Assembly: GCA_934365155.1 (NCBI GenBank) | Contig: CAKRMZ010000031.1 | Location: forward strand, 1 to 19,651 | Length of the DNA: 19,651 bases | Origin: an uncultured Eubacteriales bacterium | Lineage (GTDB): Bacteria; Bacillota; Clostridia; Oscillospirales; CAG-272 | Direction of reading: 5' to 3' | In this document: positions 141 through 9,965 of the stretch, piece by piece | How positions within the stretch are numbered: the stretch's first letter is position 1 | How the letters are laid out: each line of letters opens with the position of its first letter | Translations under genes and position numbers: made by a program | The notes under the pieces: model-generated | Seen by the model: only the letters and a program-made list of their open reading frames with translations | Told to the model about the DNA's origin: nothing | Database searches by the model: none

Positions 141-3077
141 TCAGTTGCTTTTGCGTTTTTTGTTGCTGACAGCATATGCACTGATTGCTGCACCGCCGCT
201 TACCAAGAGCAGCGAAATCCACAGCAGCAGATTGTTTCTGTCGCCGGTTTTCGGGGCGTCCGTCAACTTCTTGATTACGGTATCCGCCTTGGTGATTTCT
301 TTGGTTGCCGCAGCGTCACCGTAAACTTTGCCGCAAGCCTTGCAATACCAGTATTCGATATTCCCCTCGGCATCTTTGGTTGCCGCTTTGGCGGGAACGT
401 GTTTGAGGTCTGCATGATTGGTTGCGTCAAGATCGCCGTAAGCTTTGCCGCAGTCTTCGCAGATCGCTTTGTCTTTGCAGCTCGCTTTGCCGCCGCTGTG
501 CTCTGCTTTGATTTCGGCAATACTGCAGTTTTCATTTTGGCATTCGTGCCAATGACTGTTTTCATCGCTGTGCCAAGCACCGGTAAAATCATGGTGCTTC
601 GCCGCGACGGCTTCCTCATTGCAGAATCTGCAATAAACGGGAGTTGTGCAATCGCCGTCGTCCGCAAGTGCTGTATGCCCGTTGTTGACCGTCACGGTCA
701 TTTCGGCGGTGTTGCCCGCTTTGTCTTTTACGATGATTTTCTGCTCGCCGTCTGCCGGAGAGAGGACAAAGCGGCCATTTTTGTCGAGTCTGACCTCTGT
801 TCCGTTTATTACGGTGACGGTATCAATATACTCCTCGTCAATGGTGACGGTTTGTGCCTCGCAATAGGTCTTGCCGCTCTCAACGCCGCGGATTATGGGT
901 TTTATGCTGTCCATCACAATGCCGTTTGAGGAAATATAAGTCACATTGTCCGCTTTGTCCGTCAGTTTAACGTAAACAATAACGCGGCTCATATTCTCCT
1001 GAACCGGAGTGATGTTAAACGGATCGGTATACTCTGTGAAAACAGCGCTTGCAAGCTCTGCATCGCTAAGCTTTTTATCGGACAGCAAATATTCAATCTT
1101 GACCGGCTCTTTGCTGCTGTCGGATGCAGTAATTGTAACCTTCTGCGCATCTTTGAAGAACAAACCGAAGATGATTTCATCGGGGATGCTTTCCCACTGA
1201 TACTTATCGATCTCAATTTTGCCTGTCGGCTTTTCATTGTCCTGCCACTCGGCCTTCAGGATAATGGTCGTTACGTTGTCATCCACCGCAAGATCGGCGT
1301 AAGTGGTATCTTTTGTGATGGTTCTATCGCCGCACTTCCAGCCATTGAAGTCATAACCGATTTTTTGGGGATCGGTTATGCCCTCAAGCACTTTATCCGT
1401 CCATTTTACCCCCAATTTATCGGAAATGACTGTGCCGCCGACCGTATCAAACTTTACGGTATAGCTCTTTTCCGTCCAGTCGGCGGTCAGCGTGATACTC
1501 GTTACGTTATCATCAGCCGCAAGGTCGGCATAAGTGGTATCCGCAGATACCATCTTGCCGTCGCACTTCCAACCAATGAAATCATAGCCGATTCTTTCGG
1601 GATCGGTAACGCCGTCGAGTACTTTATCTATCAATTGCACATTTGTTTTATCGGCAATGGTCGTGCCGCCGACCGTGTCAAATTTTACGGTATAGCTCCT
1701 TACCGTCCAGTCGGCAGTCAGCGTGATACTCGTTACGTTATCATCAGTCGCAAGGTCGGCATAGGTAGTATTCGTAGATATGGTTCTTCCGCCGCACTTC
1801 CAGCCATTGAAATCATAGCCGACTTTTGAAGGCGCGGAAATGCCGTTTAAAACCTTATCGCTCCAGCTAAGAGGTTTATCGGTAATGGCCGTGCCGCCCG
1901 CCGTGTCAAATTTTACGGTATAGCTCTTTGCCGTCCAATCAGCGGTCAGCGATATGTTTTGCGTGACATCCTGTGTGAAATCATAGGGTGTGCCGTCCTT
2001 AAGCCAACACTTAAAAGTGTAGCCTTTTCGGGTCGGCGCGACCGGTGCTGTCGCGGGAGCGTTTGCTCGTATCTGCGAAGGCACGCCCGAATCAAAGGTA
2101 ACAGTGTATATTCCGGTTGTGGTGCCGTTGAAGGTGCCTCCGGTAACGACGCGGGTATTGTCTACGGTGCCGTTAAATATGCCGTCATTGATAGTACCGC
2201 CTGAGGTAACTGTACCGTTAAATATGCCGCCTGTAATAATTCCGTAATTTTCGACAGGATAATTGTATGTGCCTCCGGAAATCGTCCCCATCCCCGTATT
2301 TGAAACATTACAGTAAAAAACAGTGGCATTTTTTCCGGTGCTTTGAATCGTCGCGTAATTTGTGCACAATTGCCCGGTCTGAACGGTGCCGCCGTTTGCG
2401 TTCAATGTACCTGCATTGCAAACAGCAACCCCATTGCTGCTGGTATATTTGGTCTTGCTTCCGGAAATGGTTGCATTTCCGCTCATTGTGAATGTTCCGT
2501 AGTTTACCACTCCTGCGGCGCAAAGAAGATTACTTCCGGTACAGCCGGTGATGATTCCGCCGGCCATTTCAAACGAGGCATTTTCCGAAACATAAATTCC
2601 TCCGGCCGCACTGATTTGGCCCGAATCATCAACGCAATTGGTAAGCCAACCGGAATTCATAACAAGTTTCCCGCCGCTTGCAACCAAAATACCGCCTGCT
2701 TTTTGGTCAACCGCTTTACCGTTTTTGATGTTTCCGGTGATAGGGCCTGCGCCGACCCCTATGGGGCCCGCAAGATCCGCACCGCTGTTTTTTATGGTCA
2801 GCGTACCGTTTACCACAATTACGGTGCCGTTATTTTGAGCGTCTATCGCCTTGCCGTTTAAATCCAGTGTCACGGTTTTACCGGCAGGAACCGTCAATGG
2901 GCTTCCGCCCCAGGAAATATCACTTGAAAGACTTACCGAAAGATTGTCGGTACTGTTTATAAGGTTTTGCAGTCCGCTCCAACTGCCGGCCGTCTGAGTC
3001 GCCGCAAACACCGCAGTCGGTACAAGGCAGATCACCGTACAAAGAGTGAGCAGAATGCTGAGTATTCGTTTATTCAT
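141..3077 (-). CDS. Large cell-wall-anchored repeat adhesin (978 aa)
   Basis: ATG at 3075-3077, with GGAGG 9 nt upstream. Domain order:
- signal peptide MNKRILSILLTLCTVICLVPTAVFA;
- Gly/Asn/Thr-rich segment resembling a parallel beta-helix;
- four Listeria-Bacteroides (Flg_new-type) repeats, YTV(K/T)FD...GY.F.GW...LTADW;
- two Ig-like segments;
- Cys/His-rich modules;
- C-terminal APKTG, a hydrophobic helix and a KKRKSN tail, i.e. an LPXTG-class sorting signal. Confidence 0.9.
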   Translation of the reverse strand: MNKRILSILLTLCTVICLVPTAVFAATQTAGSWSGLQNLINSTDNLSVSLSSDISWGGSPLTVPAGKTVTLDLNGKAIDAQNNGTVIVVNGTLTIKNSGADLAGPIGVGAGPITGNIKNGKAVDQKAGGILVASGGKLVMNSGWLTNCVDDSGQISAAGGIYVSENASFEMAGGIITGCTGSNLLCAAGVVNYGTFTMSGNATISGSKTKYTSSNGVAVCNAGTLNANGGTVQTGQLCTNYATIQSTGKNATVFYCNVSNTGMGTISGGTYNYPVENYGIITGGIFNGTVTSGGTINDGIFNGTVDNTRVVTGGTFNGTTTGIYTVTFDSGVPSQIRANAPATAPVAPTRKGYTFKCWLKDGTPYDFTQDVTQNISLTADWTAKSYTVKFDTAGGTAITDKPLSWSDKVLNGISAPSKVGYDFNGWKCGGRTISTNTTYADLATDDNVTSITLTADWTVRSYTVKFDTVGGTTIADKTNVQLIDKVLDGVTDPERIGYDFIGWKCDGKMVSADTTYADLAADDNVTSITLTADWTEKSYTVKFDTVGGTVISDKLGVKWTDKVLEGITDPQKIGYDFNGWKCGDRTITKDTTYADLAVDDNVTTIILKAEWQDNEKPTGKIEIDKYQWESIPDEIIFGLFFKDAQKVTITASDSSKEPVKIEYLLSDKKLSDAELASAVFTEYTDPFNITPVQENMSRVIVYVKLTDKADNVTYISSNGIVMDSIKPIIRGVESGKTYCEAQTVTIDEEYIDTVTVINGTEVRLDKNGRFVLSPADGEQKIIVKDKAGNTAEMTVTVNNGHTALADDGDCTTPVYCRFCNEEAVAAKHHDFTGAWHSDENSHWHECQNENCSIAEIKAEHSGGKASCKDKAICEDCGKAYGDLDATNHADLKHVPAKAATKDAEGNIEYWYCKACGKVYGDAAATKEITKADTVIKKLTDAPKTGDRNNLLLWISLLLVSGGAAISAYAVSNKKRKSN
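1215..1960 (-). repeat. In-frame tandem repeat, period 228 bp (76 aa), about 3 copies, encoding the Flg_new-type modules
   Basis: The motif GCCGACCGTxTCAAAxTTTACGGTATAGCTC recurs at about 1438 and about 1666 (228 bp apart). A third, more diverged copy (GCCCGCCGTGTC...) lies at about 1894. Long near-identical stretches follow the first two copies (..GTCAGCGTGATACTCGTTACGTTATCATCAG..). Confidence 0.85.
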
Positions 3078-3108
3078 TTCGCGTTACCTCCGTCTTGTAT
3101 GTATCGGC

Positions 3109-4584
3109 TCAGTCAAGGGCAATAATGGTTATGCTGTACTGACTATCGTTGAAATTCGTATCCTGGAAGAGCATATCTATGTATTGAAATGTCAAAGTAA
3201 TATCCTCTTCTGCCGTGTATATGGTGTTATATGACATAGTCAGTCTTACGCTTTGACTATCCTTCGGTATAATCACATAGCTTCGCGTCTCCAATGCCAT
3301 TTCAGAACTGTTGTATCCGTCAATGAGTGATGCACCGCACGACTTATCATCGCCCTTAGCGCTGACCGTAACCGTTCCGCTGAACACCAAGCTATATGTA
3401 TGACCTTTTGAAAGGGTGATTTTATTGCTCGATGAATTATAGGAAATCAAATTTCCGCTTTCTTTTTTCACAGTGAACGGAAGCGATGTTCGCCAGCTAT
3501 ATACTTTTCCGCTCGCAGCAAAATATCCGGCACAGGCACCGTCTTTTCCATCTTTTCCGTCTTTTCCGGCTGCACCGTCTTTTCCGTTGATGCCGTCTTT
3601 GCCGTCAATACCGTCGGTACCCGCGGCTTTTACACCGGTGTCGTTTGTACCGATCCACCAGTTGCCGTTTTCACCGATAAAGGGAGTTTTTCCGTCTTCG
3701 CCGTTGGTTCCGTTTATCCCGTCTTTACCGGCTGCGCCATCTTTACCGTTGATTCCGTCTTTGCCGTCAATACCGTCGGTACCCGCGGCCTTTACACCGG
3801 TGTCGTTTTCTCCGATCCACCAGTTGCCGTTTTCACCGATAAAGGGAGTTTTTCCGTCTTCGCCGTTGGTTCCGTTTATCCCGTCTTTACCGGTTGCGCC
3901 ATCTTTACCGTTGATTCCGTCTTTGCCGTCAATACCGTCGGTACCCGCGGCCTTTACGCCGGTGTCGTTTTCTCCGATCCACCAGTTGCCGTTTTCACCG
4001 ATAAAAGGGGTTTTCCCGTCTTCGCCGTTGATGCCGTCTTTACCATTAAGTCCCTGAAGCGTCGAAAGGTCGTATAGGTTCAGCCATATTTCGTCGCCTG
4101 CATAACGCCATTGCAGAGTGTTTACATTAACTCGGAACTCCGGCGTTTTTCCGTTTGCTCCGTCCGCACCCTTTTGTCCGGAGGGGCCTGTAATATCGGC
4201 AAGAGCCACAAGATTCTGCCAATCTTCTCCCTCATAGCACCACTGTATGTATAAATCAGCCTTTTGAACCTTTACTGTTTTACCGTTGATACCATCTTTA
4301 CCGTCGATGCCATTCGTCCCATCCTTGCCGTCAATTCCATCGATGCCATTCTTGCCGTCGGCACCGTTTTCTCCCATAGCACCGGAAAGTTCGGCAAGCG
4401 ACACCAGATCATTCCAGTCGGTGTCATCACTGTATTTCCACTGGATAGCAGTGCCATTGTTCCGCACCTCCAACCGATCCTTCGCCGTACTTGCTTGTTG
4501 TGTTCTGCTGCATCCGGCAAAAAATGCAATCCCCAGCGTCACCGCCACAAGCAGGCAGGCAATCCCATACAACCATTTTCTCAT
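3109..4584 (-). CDS. Collagen-like surface lipoprotein with a C1q/BclA-like C-terminal head (491 aa)
   Basis: ATG at 4582-4584, with GGAGG 9 nt upstream. Lipoprotein signal MRKWLYGIACLLVAVTLGIAFFAG|C. Many G-X-Y triplet runs (GKDGINGKDGATGKDGINGTNGEDGKT) are interrupted by Trp-containing modules. The last ~140 aa are non-collagenous and beta-rich, ending ITIIALD. Confidence 0.9.
   Translation of the reverse strand: MRKWLYGIACLLVAVTLGIAFFAGCSRTQQASTAKDRLEVRNNGTAIQWKYSDDTDWNDLVSLAELSGAMGENGADGKNGIDGIDGKDGTNGIDGKDGINGKTVKVQKADLYIQWCYEGEDWQNLVALADITGPSGQKGADGANGKTPEFRVNVNTLQWRYAGDEIWLNLYDLSTLQGLNGKDGINGEDGKTPFIGENGNWWIGENDTGVKAAGTDGIDGKDGINGKDGATGKDGINGTNGEDGKTPFIGENGNWWIGENDTGVKAAGTDGIDGKDGINGKDGAAGKDGINGTNGEDGKTPFIGENGNWWIGTNDTGVKAAGTDGIDGKDGINGKDGAAGKDGKDGKDGACAGYFAASGKVYSWRTSLPFTVKKESGNLISYNSSSNKITLSKGHTYSLVFSGTVTVSAKGDDKSCGASLIDGYNSSEMALETRSYVIIPKDSQSVRLTMSYNTIYTAEEDITLTFQYIDMLFQDTNFNDSQYSITIIALD
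3540..4035 (-). repeat. Near-identical in-frame tandem repeat, period 162 bp (54 aa), about 3 copies
   Basis: GGTACCCGCGGC starts at 3616, 3778 and 3940, exactly 162 bp apart. The protein unit GEDGKTPFIGENGNWWIGENDTGVKAAGTDGIDGKDGINGKDGA(T/A)GKDGINGTN occurs three times. Confidence 0.9.
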
Positions 4585-4609
4585 TCTTCGTTACCTCCGT
4601 TATATAGAC

Positions 4610-5797
4610 TTAATCAAGAGCGGTTATTGTAATTGTTCCGTTGAAGCCGAGAAGCATAGTTTTATAGCTTGACTGCTCAATGATAAATCGCAGAGAAACA
4701 TCTTCCTCCGACGCGACATATATCCGGCTAAAACTGAAATGGTGCTGATCCTTTGAATACGGCAGTTTTACGCCGTCTCTCTTTATGCGCGTAGCCTCTC
4801 TGCAATAGTTGTTATCGTAATTGTCCGTCATCTGAACAGAATAATTGCCGCTGCTGTCTTCATGCGATTGCAGCTCAATCGAGCCGCTGATGCTGACGCT
4901 GTAGGAGTGGCCGCGTTTCAATGTAATTTCATCCCTATAGATTGAAACAAGGCCGCCGCTTTCGGTTTCTTTATAAACCTTTATTCCGACAGGACGTTCG
5001 GCTCCGTTCTCTTTATAAAGCTCACCTTTTGCCCACAGTGTGCCGTAGAACCAGCCCGAACAGCTGCCGTTCTGACCGGCATCGCCTTTGTCGCCTTTAT
5101 CCCCCTTGTCGCCCTTTTCGCCCTGAGATCCTGTGGCTTTCACACCGGTGTCGGTTTCACCGATCCACCAGTTGCCGTTTTCACCGACAAAAGGTGTATC
5201 ACCGTTTTTTCCGTCGGCTCCGTCTATGCCGTCTATACCATTCCTACCATTGACACCGTCAATACCGTTGACACCATCTTTGCCATCTTTGCCGTCAAGC
5301 CCTTTCAGGGTCGAAAGATCATAAAGATTCAGCCATATTCCGTCGCCGCTATAACGCCATTGCAGGGTATCTTCGTTCACTCGGAACTCCGGTGTTTTCC
5401 CGTCAGCTCCGTCCGCACCGTTCTGCCCGGAGGGACCCGAAATATCGGCAATAGCTACAAGATTCTGCCACTGATCACCCTCATAGCGCCACTGTATGTA
5501 AGAATCTGTTCTTTTTACTTCTATGTTTTCGGCATCAGCGCCATTCTTTCCGTCAATTCCGTCTTTGCCGTTTTCTCCGGCAACACCTCTAAGTTCGGTA
5601 AGAGCCACAAGGTCGTGCCACTCCTGCTCGTCGGCATATTTCCATTGGATAGCCGTGCCGTTGTTTTGCACTCTTGGCAGCATAGCGGTTGTTTTTTTCG
5701 CTTTGCCCCATCCGACAGCAAGCACAATGCAAAGCGCCGAAAGGACAATGCAGAGTGCCGCAAGCACCGCTGTGAAAAGTTTTTTCTTTTTTTTCAT
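4610..5797 (-). CDS. Collagen-like surface protein, paralog of 3109-4584, with an N-terminal signal-anchor and a divergent C1q/BclA-like head (395 aa)
   Basis: Same module order as its neighbour: NNGTAIQWKY..W.DLV.L.EL.G, collagen triplets, TPFVGENGNWWIGETDTGVKA, and a head ending ITITALD. Start moved from the track's 5851 to the ATG at 5795-5797 (MKKKKKLF...), which has GGAG 9 nt upstream. Confidence 0.85.
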   Translation of the reverse strand: MKKKKKLFTAVLAALCIVLSALCIVLAVGWGKAKKTTAMLPRVQNNGTAIQWKYADEQEWHDLVALTELRGVAGENGKDGIDGKNGADAENIEVKRTDSYIQWRYEGDQWQNLVAIADISGPSGQNGADGADGKTPEFRVNEDTLQWRYSGDGIWLNLYDLSTLKGLDGKDGKDGVNGIDGVNGRNGIDGIDGADGKNGDTPFVGENGNWWIGETDTGVKATGSQGEKGDKGDKGDKGDAGQNGSCSGWFYGTLWAKGELYKENGAERPVGIKVYKETESGGLVSIYRDEITLKRGHSYSVSISGSIELQSHEDSSGNYSVQMTDNYDNNYCREATRIKRDGVKLPYSKDQHHFSFSRIYVASEEDVSLRFIIEQSSYKTMLLGFNGTITITALD

Positions 5798-5834
5798 CTT
5801 CTTTTCTCCGTTTGGAATCGTTATTACGGCGAAA

Positions 5835-5843
5835 ATTCTACCA
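5835..5843 (-). promoter_or_regulatory. Candidate extended -10 promoter (TGgTAGAAT) for the collagen/adhesin genes
   Basis: Minus-sense TGGTAGAAT lies about 38 nt upstream of the 5797 start, in the 81-nt gap after the tetR stop. No good -35 hexamer. Confidence 0.3.
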
Positions 5844-5878
5844 AAGCCCACGCCGTGAATGGGCAGCGCTTGACGGGT

Positions 5879-6469
5879 TTACGCTTTGTCAGTATCTTTT
5901 GTCTTGTATCTATCAATAAACATAGTAACCCCTTGCTTTAAAATCGCCATCTGAGATTTTAAATAGTATTCATCCTCAAACATCGCATAGTGCACACAAG
6001 CACGGACGAATATAAAAATAAGCGATGTGATTACAGTATACGGTATGCCGATCTTCGGCTCCAATAATTTAGCATATGCCGTATAACGCTCATTCACGCC
6101 TTCAAAAAACTTTTTTCCGTGTTCTATGTATTTCGGCAAAGTATAAACCTGATACATCAAGCGATATTTTTTGCCGTGTTTTTTTGCCGTCCAATACGGT
6201 ACTTCTTCGATGAACCTCATAGCATCCTTCGGGTCGCTCGGCGCCTTCGCCATAAAATCCTCTTCTACTTTGGACATACAATAAGCGGTCGACTGAATAA
6301 TGAGCTCATCAAGATCTTTGAAATAGCAATAAAGGTTTCCCGTCGTGCAACCGCACGCATCCGCCAATGCTTTAATTCCCGTTCCGGTCAGTCCGTTTTC
6401 GGCATAGCACTCAAAGCATTTTTCCATGATTTCCTGCTTTCGATCATTGTGCTGCTGTTCCGTTCTCAT
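5879..6469 (-). CDS. TetR/AcrR-family transcriptional regulator (196 aa)
   Basis: N-terminal TetR-type HTH (GIKALADACGCTTGNLYCYFKDLDELI) followed by a helical ligand-binding-type C-terminal half. ATG at 6467-6469, with GGAGG 13 nt upstream. Confidence 0.9.
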   Translation of the reverse strand: MRTEQQHNDRKQEIMEKCFECYAENGLTGTGIKALADACGCTTGNLYCYFKDLDELIIQSTAYCMSKVEEDFMAKAPSDPKDAMRFIEEVPYWTAKKHGKKYRLMYQVYTLPKYIEHGKKFFEGVNERYTAYAKLLEPKIGIPYTVITSLIFIFVRACVHYAMFEDEYYLKSQMAILKQGVTMFIDRYKTKDTDKA

Positions 6470-6821: not shown

Positions 6822-6863
6822 AGTGAAAAAGAACCGCCCGCACCTTGCAATAAAGGTGCGGGC
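6822..6863 (-). terminator. Rho-independent terminator of the zinc-ribbon protein gene
   Basis: GCCCGCACCTT (6836-6846) pairs with AAGGTGCGGGC (6853-6863), 10 nt after the stop at 6874. In minus sense GGTTCTTTTT follows. Confidence 0.7.
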
Positions 6864-6873
6864 ATCCGTTCGA

Positions 6874-7668
6874 TCAGGAAAGATACAATTTCATTTTATC
6901 AAATGATTTAGAGGTTTCATGATCTGCATTTTTAAAGTCGGCCGAAAACGAATTATAACTTCCGTCCGTTCTTATGACTATATTTGTCAGCGACAAATAG
7001 TTTTCGTAAAATGCTTTCAAAGCCGAATAGGCTTCCGTATATTCGTCCGGAGGGTTTTTGAGCTGCTTCATCAGTTCCAGAACCTCATCCTGATTATTTG
7101 AAATCGCCGACAAACTGCTCGAAAAATCCTTATCGGAAAGCAAATTATAGAGAGCATCGTTAAAATCGCTTACAAATTTGCCGTTTTCCATTGTGTATTT
7201 GTCTGTTTCCGAATCCCGCTTTTCGTGAATTGCATTATACCAAACGGCCAGTATTAAATTGCCTGCCGTTTCTGCTTCCGCCGCGCCGTCAAGCATTTTG
7301 TATGTAACCGTTTTTAAATTATCGTCATACTTTTTCAAATTTTCCGAATATATTTTTAAATTTTCCGCATCAATCGCCGCCTTTCTCTTACTGACAGCAA
7401 ATGCCCCGATCAATCCGATAAGTATGACGGCCGATAGAATAATTGCAGTAATCATAATACCTTTATGCTTTTTCTTTTTCGGGATATCGACACCGTTAGA
7501 GGCGCCGCAAGCAGGGCATGTGTCCTGTTCCTTCGGATATTGTCCTCCGCATTCGGGACAGGTTATAGCAGTGGTGGAAATAGTATCGTTTTGGTAATTG
7601 CAGTGCGGGCAAACAGCGGCTTTATCGCTGATGGATTGTCCGCAATTCGGGCAGTGAATCAATGCCAT
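6874..7668 (-). CDS. Double zinc-ribbon, single-pass membrane protein with an extracytoplasmic helical domain (264 aa)
   Basis: CPNCG..x11..CPHC and CPECG..x10..CPAC motifs, then a KKKKHK stop-transfer and the TM helix GIMITAIILSAVILIGLIGAFAV, then about 160 aa rich in Lys/Asp/Asn. Start moved from the track's 7767 to the ATG at 7666-7668, which has an AGGAGA SD. Confidence 0.8.
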   Translation of the reverse strand: MALIHCPNCGQSISDKAAVCPHCNYQNDTISTTAITCPECGGQYPKEQDTCPACGASNGVDIPKKKKHKGIMITAIILSAVILIGLIGAFAVSKRKAAIDAENLKIYSENLKKYDDNLKTVTYKMLDGAAEAETAGNLILAVWYNAIHEKRDSETDKYTMENGKFVSDFNDALYNLLSDKDFSSSLSAISNNQDEVLELMKQLKNPPDEYTEAYSALKAFYENYLSLTNIVIRTDGSYNSFSADFKNADHETSKSFDKMKLYLS

Positions 7669-7684: not shown

Positions 7685-7867
7685 TTAATCGTCCTCGTCC
7701 TCGTCGTTTGGCCACGACGAGATAAAATGAATATCCCCGCTGTCCATATCCATGGCCATATTGTCACCCATGCGCATCAGCATATTACCGTCGGAGTCAA
7801 TTGCCATGTTGTCGGAAACGGTGTACGCAAAATCACCATCGTCATAGTCGAAGAAACGCTTGCTCAT
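7685..7867 (-). CDS. Hyper-acidic Asp/Met-rich microprotein (60 aa), function unknown
   Basis: ATG at 7865-7867 with a GGAG SD, 12 nt after the HNH stop and 16 nt before the next start. Hand count: 15 Asp, 2 Glu, 3 Lys/Arg, 8 Met. Internal repeat DNMAIDSDG / DNMAMDMDSG. C-terminus DEDEDD. Confidence 0.65.
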   Translation of the reverse strand: MSKRFFDYDDGDFAYTVSDNMAIDSDGNMLMRMGDNMAMDMDSGDIHFISSWPNDEDEDD

Positions 7868-7879
7868 AGAGATTTCTCC

Positions 7880-8191
7880 TCAATCTTCAATAATCTTGTA
7901 TTCCATACGGGAGCCTTTGACTCTGCGTGCGTGGTAGTGGGTGCCGTTCGCTTTCCAGTGCGGAAAGCGATCTGCTTTTTCCTCGTTGGTATCACGATGG
8001 CAAATGATAATGTTTTCGGGGACGTTGCAACCGCCGGCGGAAAGCGGACGGATGTGGTCGATCGTCGGGTGATAAGCACTGTTCGGATTCCCGCAAGCGG
8101 ATTTTTTCATCAGCCGTCCGGTATAATCATACGCCTCTTGCTTTGTACCGAAAAACCGGCTCCATACATCGATGGTCTTATACTTTGACAT
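7880..8191 (-). CDS. Compact stand-alone HNH endonuclease-fold protein (103 aa)
   Basis: HNH core IDHIRPLSAGG...ENIIICHRDTNEEKAD (His-Asn-Asn/His spacing). ATG at 8189-8191, with AGGAGG 8 nt upstream. Confidence 0.85.
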   Translation of the reverse strand: MSKYKTIDVWSRFFGTKQEAYDYTGRLMKKSACGNPNSAYHPTIDHIRPLSAGGCNVPENIIICHRDTNEEKADRFPHWKANGTHYHARRVKGSRMEYKIIED

Positions 8192-8222
8192 TTTAAGTAC
8201 CTCCTTTTCAGTTGTTATTTAT

Positions 8223-8267
8223 ATTCTATAATCCAAACGGATAACTGTCGATGAACCGCATGGTTCA
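8223..8267 (-). promoter_or_regulatory. Candidate promoter of the HNH operon with an abutting inverted repeat
   Basis: Minus sense: -35 TCGACA (8246-8251), 17-nt spacer, -10 TAGAAT (8223-8228). The inverted repeat TGAACC-gcat-GGTTCA (8252-8267) sits immediately upstream of the -35. No T-tract follows it, so it is not a convincing terminator. Confidence 0.4.
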
Positions 8268-8276
8268 AGATACCCT

Positions 8277-9830: not shown

Positions 9831-9868
9831 AAACAAAAAGTCCTTGAAAACTCAATGTTTTCAAGGAC
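9831..9868 (-). terminator. Rho-independent terminator after tRNA-Ser
   Basis: GTCCTTGAAAAC (9840-9851) pairs with GTTTTCAAGGAC (9857-9868). In minus sense TTTTTGTTT follows. Confidence 0.75.
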
Positions 9869-9873
9869 TTCGT

Positions 9874-9965
9874 TGGCGGAGAAGGAGAGATTCGAACTCT
9901 CGAACCGCTTTTGACGGTTACACGATTTCCAGTCGTGCGCCCTCGACCAGCTAGGCGACTTCTCC
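9874..9965 (-). tRNA. tRNA-Ser, anticodon GGA (92 nt, long variable arm, encoded CCA)
   Basis: Folded by hand:
- acceptor stem GGAGAAG/CTTCTCC;
- anticodon stem CACGA/TCGTG with loop CT-GGA-AA;
- variable arm AACCG/CGGTT;
- T arm GAGAG-TTCGAAT-CTCTC;
- discriminator G, then CCA. Confidence 0.93.

Follow-up and report, generated by a model that had tools for sequence, protein, structure and literature searches.

An acidic microprotein family of gut Clostridia encoded directly behind many unrelated partner genes

A gene for a strongly acidic protein of 60 residues, here called ACID, lies on the minus strand at positions 7685..7867 of a 19,651-nucleotide stretch of DNA (the window; contig CAKRMZ010000031.1, assembly GCA_934365155.1) from an uncultured Eubacteriales bacterium, directly behind a gene for a small HNH nuclease. 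Comparison of related loci shows that a combinatorial series of operons is built around ACID, which almost always stands immediately downstream of a member of one of at least eight unrelated protein families, the HNH nuclease being only one of these. The initial annotation of the window had proposed a nuclease/inhibitor pair, and the part of that proposal concerned with linkage is borne out by the near-constant presence of ACID behind close HNH homologues (78 of 80 loci), by the intact nuclease motif and by the complementary charges of the two products; its cognate, exclusive character is not, as only 26 of the 95 ACID genes compared follow an HNH gene.

The ACID gene and its product

The gene is identified by its open reading frame (ORF), its homologues, the ratio of non-synonymous to synonymous substitution (dN/dS) and an AlphaFold2 (AF2) model. 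As first described, the 103-aa HNH ORF ends 12 nt ahead of it; both lie on the minus strand, the TGA stop codon of HNH being followed by GGAGAAATCTCT, which includes the GGAG of a Shine–Dalgarno (SD) sequence, and then by the ACID ATG at 7867. The product, MSKRFFDYDDGDFAYTVSDNMAIDSDGNMLMRMGDNMAMDMDSGDIHFISSWPNDEDEDD, has 17 acidic (D+E) against three basic (K+R) residues, a net charge of -14, eight Met and an isoelectric point (pI) of 4.05; a recount of the residues agrees with the hand count made at the outset, and both the two-fold repeat DNMAIDSDG / DNMAMDMDSG and the DEDEDD tail noted then are present in the protein.

The conservation of the small ORF in relatives, on which the initial annotation depended, is extensive. 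Homologues fall into 977 clusters at 90% identity (E<=0.01) and, in an exhaustive profile search, into 443 clusters at 50% identity, coming mostly from gut Clostridia together with their mobile elements and phages. The best 150 of these 443 clusters are all stand-alone proteins of 43-104 aa, and no domain fusion was found among these 150 profile matches. Across 1003 pairs drawn from 78 distinct nucleotide sequences the median dN/dS is 0.063 at a median dS of ~0.9, and the residues G27, R32, N36, D40, G44, H47 and W52 are invariant. ACID is a real microprotein gene that is under strong purifying selection and evolves as a protein.

The AF2 model (predicted local distance difference test score, pLDDT, 81) presents six four-residue β-strands, with the acidic tail modelled at lower confidence and ending in a short predicted helix. 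Searches for a family in Pfam (E<=0.01), NCBIfam, PHROGs and PADLOC gave no match, and the only hit of the sequence against the Protein Data Bank (PDB), to a Muskelin kelch domain, was non-significant (E 0.55). Comparison of the model with the PDB by Foldseek returned nothing at E<=0.001, the SH3 and WWE matches being noise, while the same search against BFVD retrieved only two uncharacterized phage proteins (TM-score 0.67/0.80, E 7e-3). ACID represents an unannotated family with a predicted new fold.

Partners of ACID

In a scan that took a single genome from each species, 147 species proved to have ACID, and 80 loci were kept. An upstream gene was taken as coupled where the gap lay between -25 and +25 nt, and a co-directional ORF is present within 25 nt upstream of ACID in 67 of the 74 species-level loci with enough upstream sequence. 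The gap is usually 11-21 nt, with modes at 12 and 20 nt, and includes an SD sequence belonging to ACID itself; a terminator-like hairpin with a T-tract follows the gene in 53 of 78 cases. The homologous clusters, the low dN/dS, the coupled upstream gene and the trailing hairpin together place the ACID ORF far beyond what would be expected by chance.

The upstream partners were classified for 95 ACID genes. The HNH nuclease accounts for 26 of them, followed by a zinc-ribbon/transmembrane (TM) protein, c7 (15), by c8, a basic, Asn-rich protein of ~50-130 aa (14), by c4, a protein of 361-392 aa that is distantly related to the P418 protein of the window described below (10), and by ZNR (c9), the zinc-ribbon protein which is also found in the window (9). 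Less frequent partners are c3, which resembles a nucleotidyltransferase (NTase) (3), an RNase III with a double-stranded RNA-binding domain (dsRBD) (2) and P418 itself (2). Basic or nucleic-acid-binding properties recur in this list, in the HNH nuclease, in c8 and c3 (pI 9.4 and 8.8 respectively), in the helix-turn-helix (HTH) domain of P418 and c4, in the dsRBD of the RNase III and in the zinc ribbons. Library searches with c3, c4, c8 and c40 gave no family match.

The sequence of ACID does not follow the identity of its partner. Identical 52-aa cores are found behind HNH and behind ZNR, and likewise behind c4 and behind c7, and the allele P0028 occurs unchanged behind c8 (L007-L011) and behind HNH (L012) at one chromosomal site. 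The nearest neighbour of an ACID sequence belongs to the same partner class for only 40 of the 95 genes, and a search among these 95 for partner-specific co-evolution found none. Five loci (L031, L060, L143, L149 and L152) carry the arrangement ATPase-HNH-ACID-ZNR-ACID, and the two ACID copies of L031, at 6001-6177 and 6967-7143, are 73% identical to one another; the second of these has the same 52-aa core as the ACID behind ZNR in L073 and as that behind a 121-aa HNH protein in L042. The identity of this core across different partners implies that units of partner and ACID move as blocks and that ACID is not adapted to whichever gene precedes it. With ZNR, ACID is found in the contexts P418-ACID-ZNR, c4-ZNR-ACID and HNH-ACID-ZNR-ACID.

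Two of the partner families have features of their own. In the c8 proteins (for example L007, 5716-5979) the motif 'ANQxNPNN(x)AY' is repeated, and the tail is often acidic and rich in W and Y; they occur with ACID, with HNH (L171) and with P418-ACID (L203, 5013-5165). The c3 proteins (for example L085, 4606-5286) are of ~220-250 aa, present a GSG...DLD motif like that of nucleotidyltransferases and recur in the orders c3-ZnR/TM-ACID and c3-ACID, adjoining the terminase large subunit gene in the viral contigs L180-L182.

The HNH nuclease and its link to ACID

The HNH gene of the window (7880..8191, minus strand) encodes a basic (pI 9.2), stand-alone protein of the Cas9-HNH type (ββα-Me fold), as assigned from Pfam, NCBIfam and its invariant residues. 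Its Pfam scores, 26.2 bits for HNH_4 and 23.7 for HNH, lie above the respective gathering thresholds of 22 and 21.4. It is closest to the HNH domain of Cas9 and IscB, matching the NCBIfam Cas9d HNH region at 1e-8, and has homologues in 562 clusters. The motif ...TIDHIRPLS...N...TNEEK... conforms to the Cas9-type D-H...N...N pattern, and its residues H46, N60 and N69 are invariant in relatives down to 36% identity, so that the nuclease looks catalytically intact from its sequence.

A metagenome scan with this HNH as query gave 80 loci at 75-92% identity, and in 78 of these ACID lies 12-18 nt downstream of the HNH gene, with or without an ABC ATPase gene in front. The expectation that HNH homologues always carry an acidic ORF therefore holds with two exceptions: in L162 ACID is cut to 14 codons and is followed by ZNR and a second ACID, and in L171 the small Asn-rich protein c8 (~4330-4485) replaces ACID behind HNH. 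A distant HNH clade (121-134 aa, ~35% identity) is also trailed by ACID, at a 12-nt gap. In L040, L047 and L057, on the other hand, the HNH gene is frameshifted or truncated and the ACID gene behind it is intact. It is plausible that HNH and ACID are functionally linked, although an exclusive pairing is refuted.

In about 60% of the 80 loci a ~605-aa ABC ATPase (AAA_15/AAA_21) is encoded directly upstream of HNH, and in the others this position is taken by a 372-aa protein of no known family together with a 70-aa XRE HTH protein. The former layout resembles the ATPase-HNH arrangement of Septu (PtuA + PtuB) and of the PtuAB of type I-A retrons (PMC12819146; PMC13376987). Septu is however described as a two-gene system (PMC12819146), whereas a third gene of the ACID type is nearly invariant here and the window has no ATPase, P418 being found upstream of HNH instead. 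The HNH protein moreover has no match to the PADLOC PtuB models at E<=0.1 and only a weak match to Cas9 (0.0045), while the ATPase of the related loci scores best with the AriA, AbiLi and Old models, PtuA reaching just 2e-15.

Assembly of the operon and its mobile context

The operon of the window reads P418-HNH-ACID-ZNR on the minus strand. The presence of a ZNR gene behind ACID had been overlooked in the initial annotation, and ACID is not the last gene of the operon. ZNR (6874..7668; 264 aa) starts 16 nt past the ACID stop codon with its own SD sequence and comprises a double zinc ribbon (Pfam Zn_Ribbon_1 and DZR; PHROG 4852 at 1e-18), one TM helix and a helical C-terminal domain. Ten nucleotides past its stop codon, an intrinsic-terminator-like hairpin of 12 bp (8 GC) with a T run (6835..6864, minus strand) marks the end of the operon.

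The first gene, P418 (8277..9524; 415 aa), was characterized through its AF2 model (pLDDT 89), its 1265 homologous clusters and Foldseek. The protein has an N-terminal HTH of the XRE type, ankyrin-like helical pairs and an α/β C-terminal domain; one source labels a homologue 'ankyrin repeat protein'. No family was found for it in Pfam, NCBIfam or PADLOC and no counterpart in a sequence search of the PDB. Residues to ~85 match the XRE HTH domains of C.BclI, ClgR and lambda cI (TM-score 0.6-0.74 on the target), and beyond the HTH Foldseek found no significant PDB counterpart. PrgX, ComR and PlcR nominally head its Foldseek list (E>=0.016, TM-score 0.14-0.20), and a quorum-sensing reading of P418-ACID as an RRNPP-type receptor and peptide was considered and set aside, since good alignment is confined to the HTH and ACID lacks an export signal. 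Nor does ACID present the hydrophobic N-terminal segment looked for in a secreted pro-peptide, having instead a net charge of -14 and the predicted structure of a folded β-protein.

Of the partnerships of ACID, that with P418 was traced to the greatest divergence. ACID homologues at ~50% identity (P0327 and P0312) are preceded, with an overlap or at a distance of 3 nt, by proteins of 416-423 aa which are full-length P418 homologues (38-43% identity, E ~1e-90). Conversely, P418 homologues at 47% identity (L194-L196) are followed by ACID and then by a ZNR homologue, and one at 44% identity (L203) by ACID and then c8, within an element that also encodes a relaxase and a serine recombinase; the homologues in L197 and L202 are without ACID. 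The P418-ACID(-ZNR) partnership can thus be traced to the greatest divergence examined and, because it is retained there, is read as the older arrangement. In L200 the gene behind a P418 homologue (55% identity) encodes an acidic protein of 56 aa (5268-5438) that is undetected by the ACID profile but has the ACID-like N-terminal pattern MSKYxFNYExGEY and a Trp-containing acidic tail; judged by its sequence, it may be a much-diverged ACID or else an analogous protein that has taken its place.

Among syntenic relatives of the window that share its TetR gene, P418 is followed directly by ACID in L036, and L017 has ATPase-HNH-ACID. In a three-way DNA alignment, similarity between the window and the HNH cassette of L013 begins 8 nt past the P418 stop codon and runs through HNH into ACID. 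The block (7868..8276, minus strand), defined by this alignment and by blastn, comprises 409 bp with a promoter-like region, the HNH gene and the 12-nt spacer, and fills the interval from the P418 stop to the ACID start exactly; L036 and L090 are without it, and there P418 abuts ACID. The arrangement in the window is therefore most readily explained by recombination of a promoter-HNH cassette into a P418-ACID-ZNR operon, with ACID probably serving as a homologous arm. The block contains a sigma-70-like promoter candidate for HNH-ACID-ZNR, TCGACA-17-TAGAAT (8223..8251, minus strand; 10 of 12 matches in a consensus scan), which is conserved in L013, L038 and L047. Directly upstream of it lies the inverted repeat GAACC-N4-GGTTC (8253-8266, minus strand), and the repeat and promoter-like site are kept together in HNH cassettes behind the 70-aa XRE HTH gene (L013, L038, L047 and L110). 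The repeat may be an operator.

The operons that contain ACID are flanked by genes for TnpV, DUF6809 and HTH_17 proteins, tyrosine and serine recombinases, Fic and ParAB. The 3' end of a tRNA gene is a typical integration site, and blastn and tRNA scans of the relatives located a tRNA-Ser(CGA), or a partial 3' copy of ~68 nt, upstream of the same cassettes, which suggests repeated integration of mobile elements at tRNA-Ser. An integron-like or attC nature of the cassette junctions was considered; they contain only the SD sequence and stop codon, with no shared repeat. ACID also occurs in ten IMG/VR contigs, behind c3 or c8, three of the ten adjoining a terminase gene, and in the Dorea phage NatCom_31361, where c8-ACID forms a moron with the tail chaperone genes on one side and the tape measure gene on the other; we assume a promoter in the 205-nt gap that precedes this phage pair. 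The c8 gene occupies 5776-5976 in the phage record L201 (PV036443.1). No relatives of P418 or HNH were found in the viral contigs, and no ACID match in the plasmid collection.

Possible roles of ACID

The reading which we favour, tentatively and at rather less than an even chance, is that ACID is a promiscuous, co-translated acidic neutralizer or adaptor of nucleic-acid-binding partners. The production of ACID would keep pace with that of the protein from the preceding gene. ACID would bind this protein as a neutralizer or safety catch, and its acidic, Met-rich surface may do so by mimicking nucleic acid. In the operon of the window HNH would be the protein kept in check, with the HTH of P418 as a probable second target; were ACID released or lost, the partner would become active. 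It would thus act as a hyperpromiscuous antitoxin and not as a lock-and-key immunity protein. This reading rests on the coding constraint of the gene, the translational coupling, the diversity of partners and the identical cores found with them, the linkage to HNH, the divergence to which the P418 partnership extends, the HNH indel, the basic or nucleic-acid-binding nature of several partners, the mobile context and the precedent of Panacea. The Met-rich, Asp-rich surface is of a kind that, in calmodulin and the M domain of SRP54, allows plastic and promiscuous binding.

Ugi, phi29 p56, Ocr, ArdA, CarS and DMP19 are small, highly acidic mimics, many such proteins being carried on phages or mobile elements; Ugi, p56 and CarS are β-rich, CarS and DMP19 target HTH regulators, and some mimics target nucleases. 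ACID is similar to these in its size, net charge and pI, but Foldseek matches it to none of them, so that the comparison with DNA mimics made at the outset is supported by a charge of -14 within 60 residues and not by the fold. On the favoured reading ACID would be nearer to the Panacea antitoxins than to the colicin/Im pairs. A single antitoxin domain there serves dozens of toxin families (PMC8832971; PMC10440598), and ACID shares with PanA (DUF4065) of Panacea/NetFlax the use of one small family in bicistronic, mobile, phage-associated cassettes with many unrelated partners, including nucleases, NTases and membrane proteins. ACID differs in having no DUF4065 and no sequence or Pfam relation to PanA, in coming second in the gene order and in presenting identical cores to different partners, whereas the sequence of PanA adapts to each toxin.

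Several observations weigh against neutralization. P418, c4 and full-length ZNR are acidic (pI 5.3-5.7) and not toxin-like, yet it is these that are retained at the greatest divergence, and L171 provides one intact HNH without ACID. The fold of ACID is unmatched to any known DNA mimic or antitoxin, its structural neighbours being the uncharacterized phage proteins only. The occurrence of an unchanged 52-aa core with unrelated partners argues against specific protein-protein neutralization and fits an autonomous function equally well. A bolder version, which we consider unlikely, would make ACID a universal neutralizer of new β-fold whose essentially invariant 52-residue core would bind and silence structurally unrelated effectors and regulators that bind nucleic acids (HNH, RNase III, the NTase-like enzyme, the small basic protein, the XRE HTH and the zinc ribbons) by nucleic-acid mimicry; if so, the mobile elements of gut Clostridia could plug any effector of this sort in front of one shared safety-catch gene, giving a generic module for cassettes of the toxin-antitoxin or abortive-infection type.

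The strongest competing explanation, though a rather doubtful one in our estimation, takes ACID as an autonomous factor of the mobile element that hits a target in the host or in a competitor, for example as an anti-restriction, anti-defence or DNA-repair-inhibiting protein of the DNA-mimic kind, in the manner of Ugi, p56 or Ocr. A corollary of similarly limited likelihood is that ACID constitutes the 3' anchor and terminator of a cargo hotspot, in which HNH, P418 and the others are exchangeable and physically unlinked to it. At a given chromosomal site one allele is indeed found following different cargo (L007-L011 as against L012; L003 as against L009), the flanks with TnpV, DUF6809, HTH_17 and integrase genes, the viral contigs and the Dorea phage moron are all in keeping with such a factor, nucleotide conservation of 70-89% would favour the swapping of cassettes by recombination, and ACID outlasts the decay of HNH. 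A mere anchor would not, however, be expected to hold its 11-21 nt coupling to eight unrelated genes (67 of 74 loci), nor does an autonomous gene sit easily with an ACID that is almost never found alone with its own promoter, with the maintenance of two diverged copies in one operon, each behind a different gene, or with a structure unlike that of known mimics.

The persistence of P418 raises the further possibility, again an unlikely one, that ACID is the dedicated cofactor (such as an anti-repressor or partner-switch protein) of a regulatory or signalling module formed by P418 or c4 with ZNR, in which the HNH cassette, with a nuclease of defensive or selfish nature, would be an unrelated insertion. 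P418-ACID, P418-ACID-ZNR, c4-ZNR-ACID and c4-ACID are recurrent combinations that are kept at the greatest divergence of ACID and P418 examined; the HTH of P418 is a genuine XRE domain, and the HNH block forms a clean indel that separates P418 from ACID and has its own promoter-like site. Set against this are the combinations ATPase-HNH-ACID, c8-ACID, c3-ACID and RNase III-ACID, all without P418, c4 or ZNR, and the two P418 homologues (L197 and L202) that do without ACID, while an accidental insertion is hard to square with an HNH-ACID linkage that is seen in 78 of 80 loci and again in relatives at 35% identity.

A cognate nuclease/immunity pair in the manner of the colicin E DNases, with ACID as a specific, high-affinity and co-evolved inhibitor of HNH, is improbable, and the model is largely refuted by the distribution of ACID. 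The likeness to colicins E2, E7 and E9 on which the initial annotation drew is that of an HNH gene followed after a few nucleotides by the gene of a small, strongly acidic protein, and the HNH fold with catalytic His and metal-binding Asn/His residues is common to both nucleases; the tight coupling, the 78 of 80 co-occurrences counted from the HNH side, the complementary charges and the intact active site would all accord with such a pair. Colicin DNases are however C-terminal domains of large secreted toxins, and Im proteins are four-helix bundles of ~85 aa that co-vary with their nuclease. The HNH of the window is by contrast a 103-aa stand-alone ORF, and no larger secreted protein carries it as a toxic domain; ACID, predicted to be all-β, has neither an Im-like helical fold nor a match to the family in Pfam. 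It serves many partners with unchanged sequence, 69 of the 95 ACID genes having no HNH in front and identical cores being shared between ZNR and HNH, between c4 and c7 and, in the allele P0028, between c8 and HNH. The resemblance to the colicin pairs goes no further than gene order and charge. Small proteins that block the HNH site of Cas9-type enzymes are known in AcrIIC1 and AcrIIA1 (PMC10576004; bioRxiv 10.1101/787200), whose targets belong to the Cas9-like subtype that the HNH of the window resembles; these inhibitors are encoded by the invader against a host nuclease, are not co-transcribed with it and have no detected similarity in sequence or structure to ACID.

Metal binding, suggested at the outset as an alternative and now envisaged as the capture of Cu(I)/Ag(I) or Ca2+ by Met/Asp/His/Trp loops (a CusF-like Met2His+Trp or a DxDxDG-like site) independently of any nuclease, is very improbable, as it draws on composition alone (eight Met, the invariant H47 and W52, repeated Asp-Gly turns), Met-rich Cu sites being typically extracytoplasmic and ACID having no signal peptide, no metal-homeostasis genes in ~190 neighbourhoods and no structural match to CusF, EF-hand or Excalibur proteins.

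If ACID is indeed a partner shared by such varied effectors, it would provide a second, independent case of hyperpromiscuous neutralization after Panacea, achieved with 60 residues, a new fold and no adaptation of sequence. It would also give a general insight into the way in which toxic or defensive cargo is put together and exchanged by mobile elements, and a handle on an unannotated guild of gene families, abundant in human and animal gut Clostridia, that includes P418/c4, the two zinc-ribbon membrane proteins, c8 and c3. Should ACID prove to be a minimal inhibitor of broad range against Cas9-type HNH domains, it would be of practical interest. Even as an autonomous factor, ACID marks a recombination hotspot that may be mined for new defence and counter-defence genes.

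Other features of the window

The operon is borne on a low-GC islet (GC 0.37-0.44 against ~0.48) headed by a tRNA-Ser(GGA) gene (9874..9965, minus strand), which was identified by ARAGORN and by the Rfam tRNA model (56 bits), stands at the edge of the dip in GC and is followed by its own terminator (9837-9871, minus strand). The remainder of the window is an ordinary chromosome of the Clostridia type, with genes for RNase Y, YmdB, ThiI, proA/proB, ZapA and a U32 peptidase. On the minus strand, beyond the TetR gene, lie genes for two proteins with collagen triple-helix repeats (3109-4584 and 4610-5851) and for a 978-aa protein with Listeria-Bacteroides (Flg_new) repeats (141-3077); these products of the region 141-5851 are probably surface proteins and unrelated to ACID.

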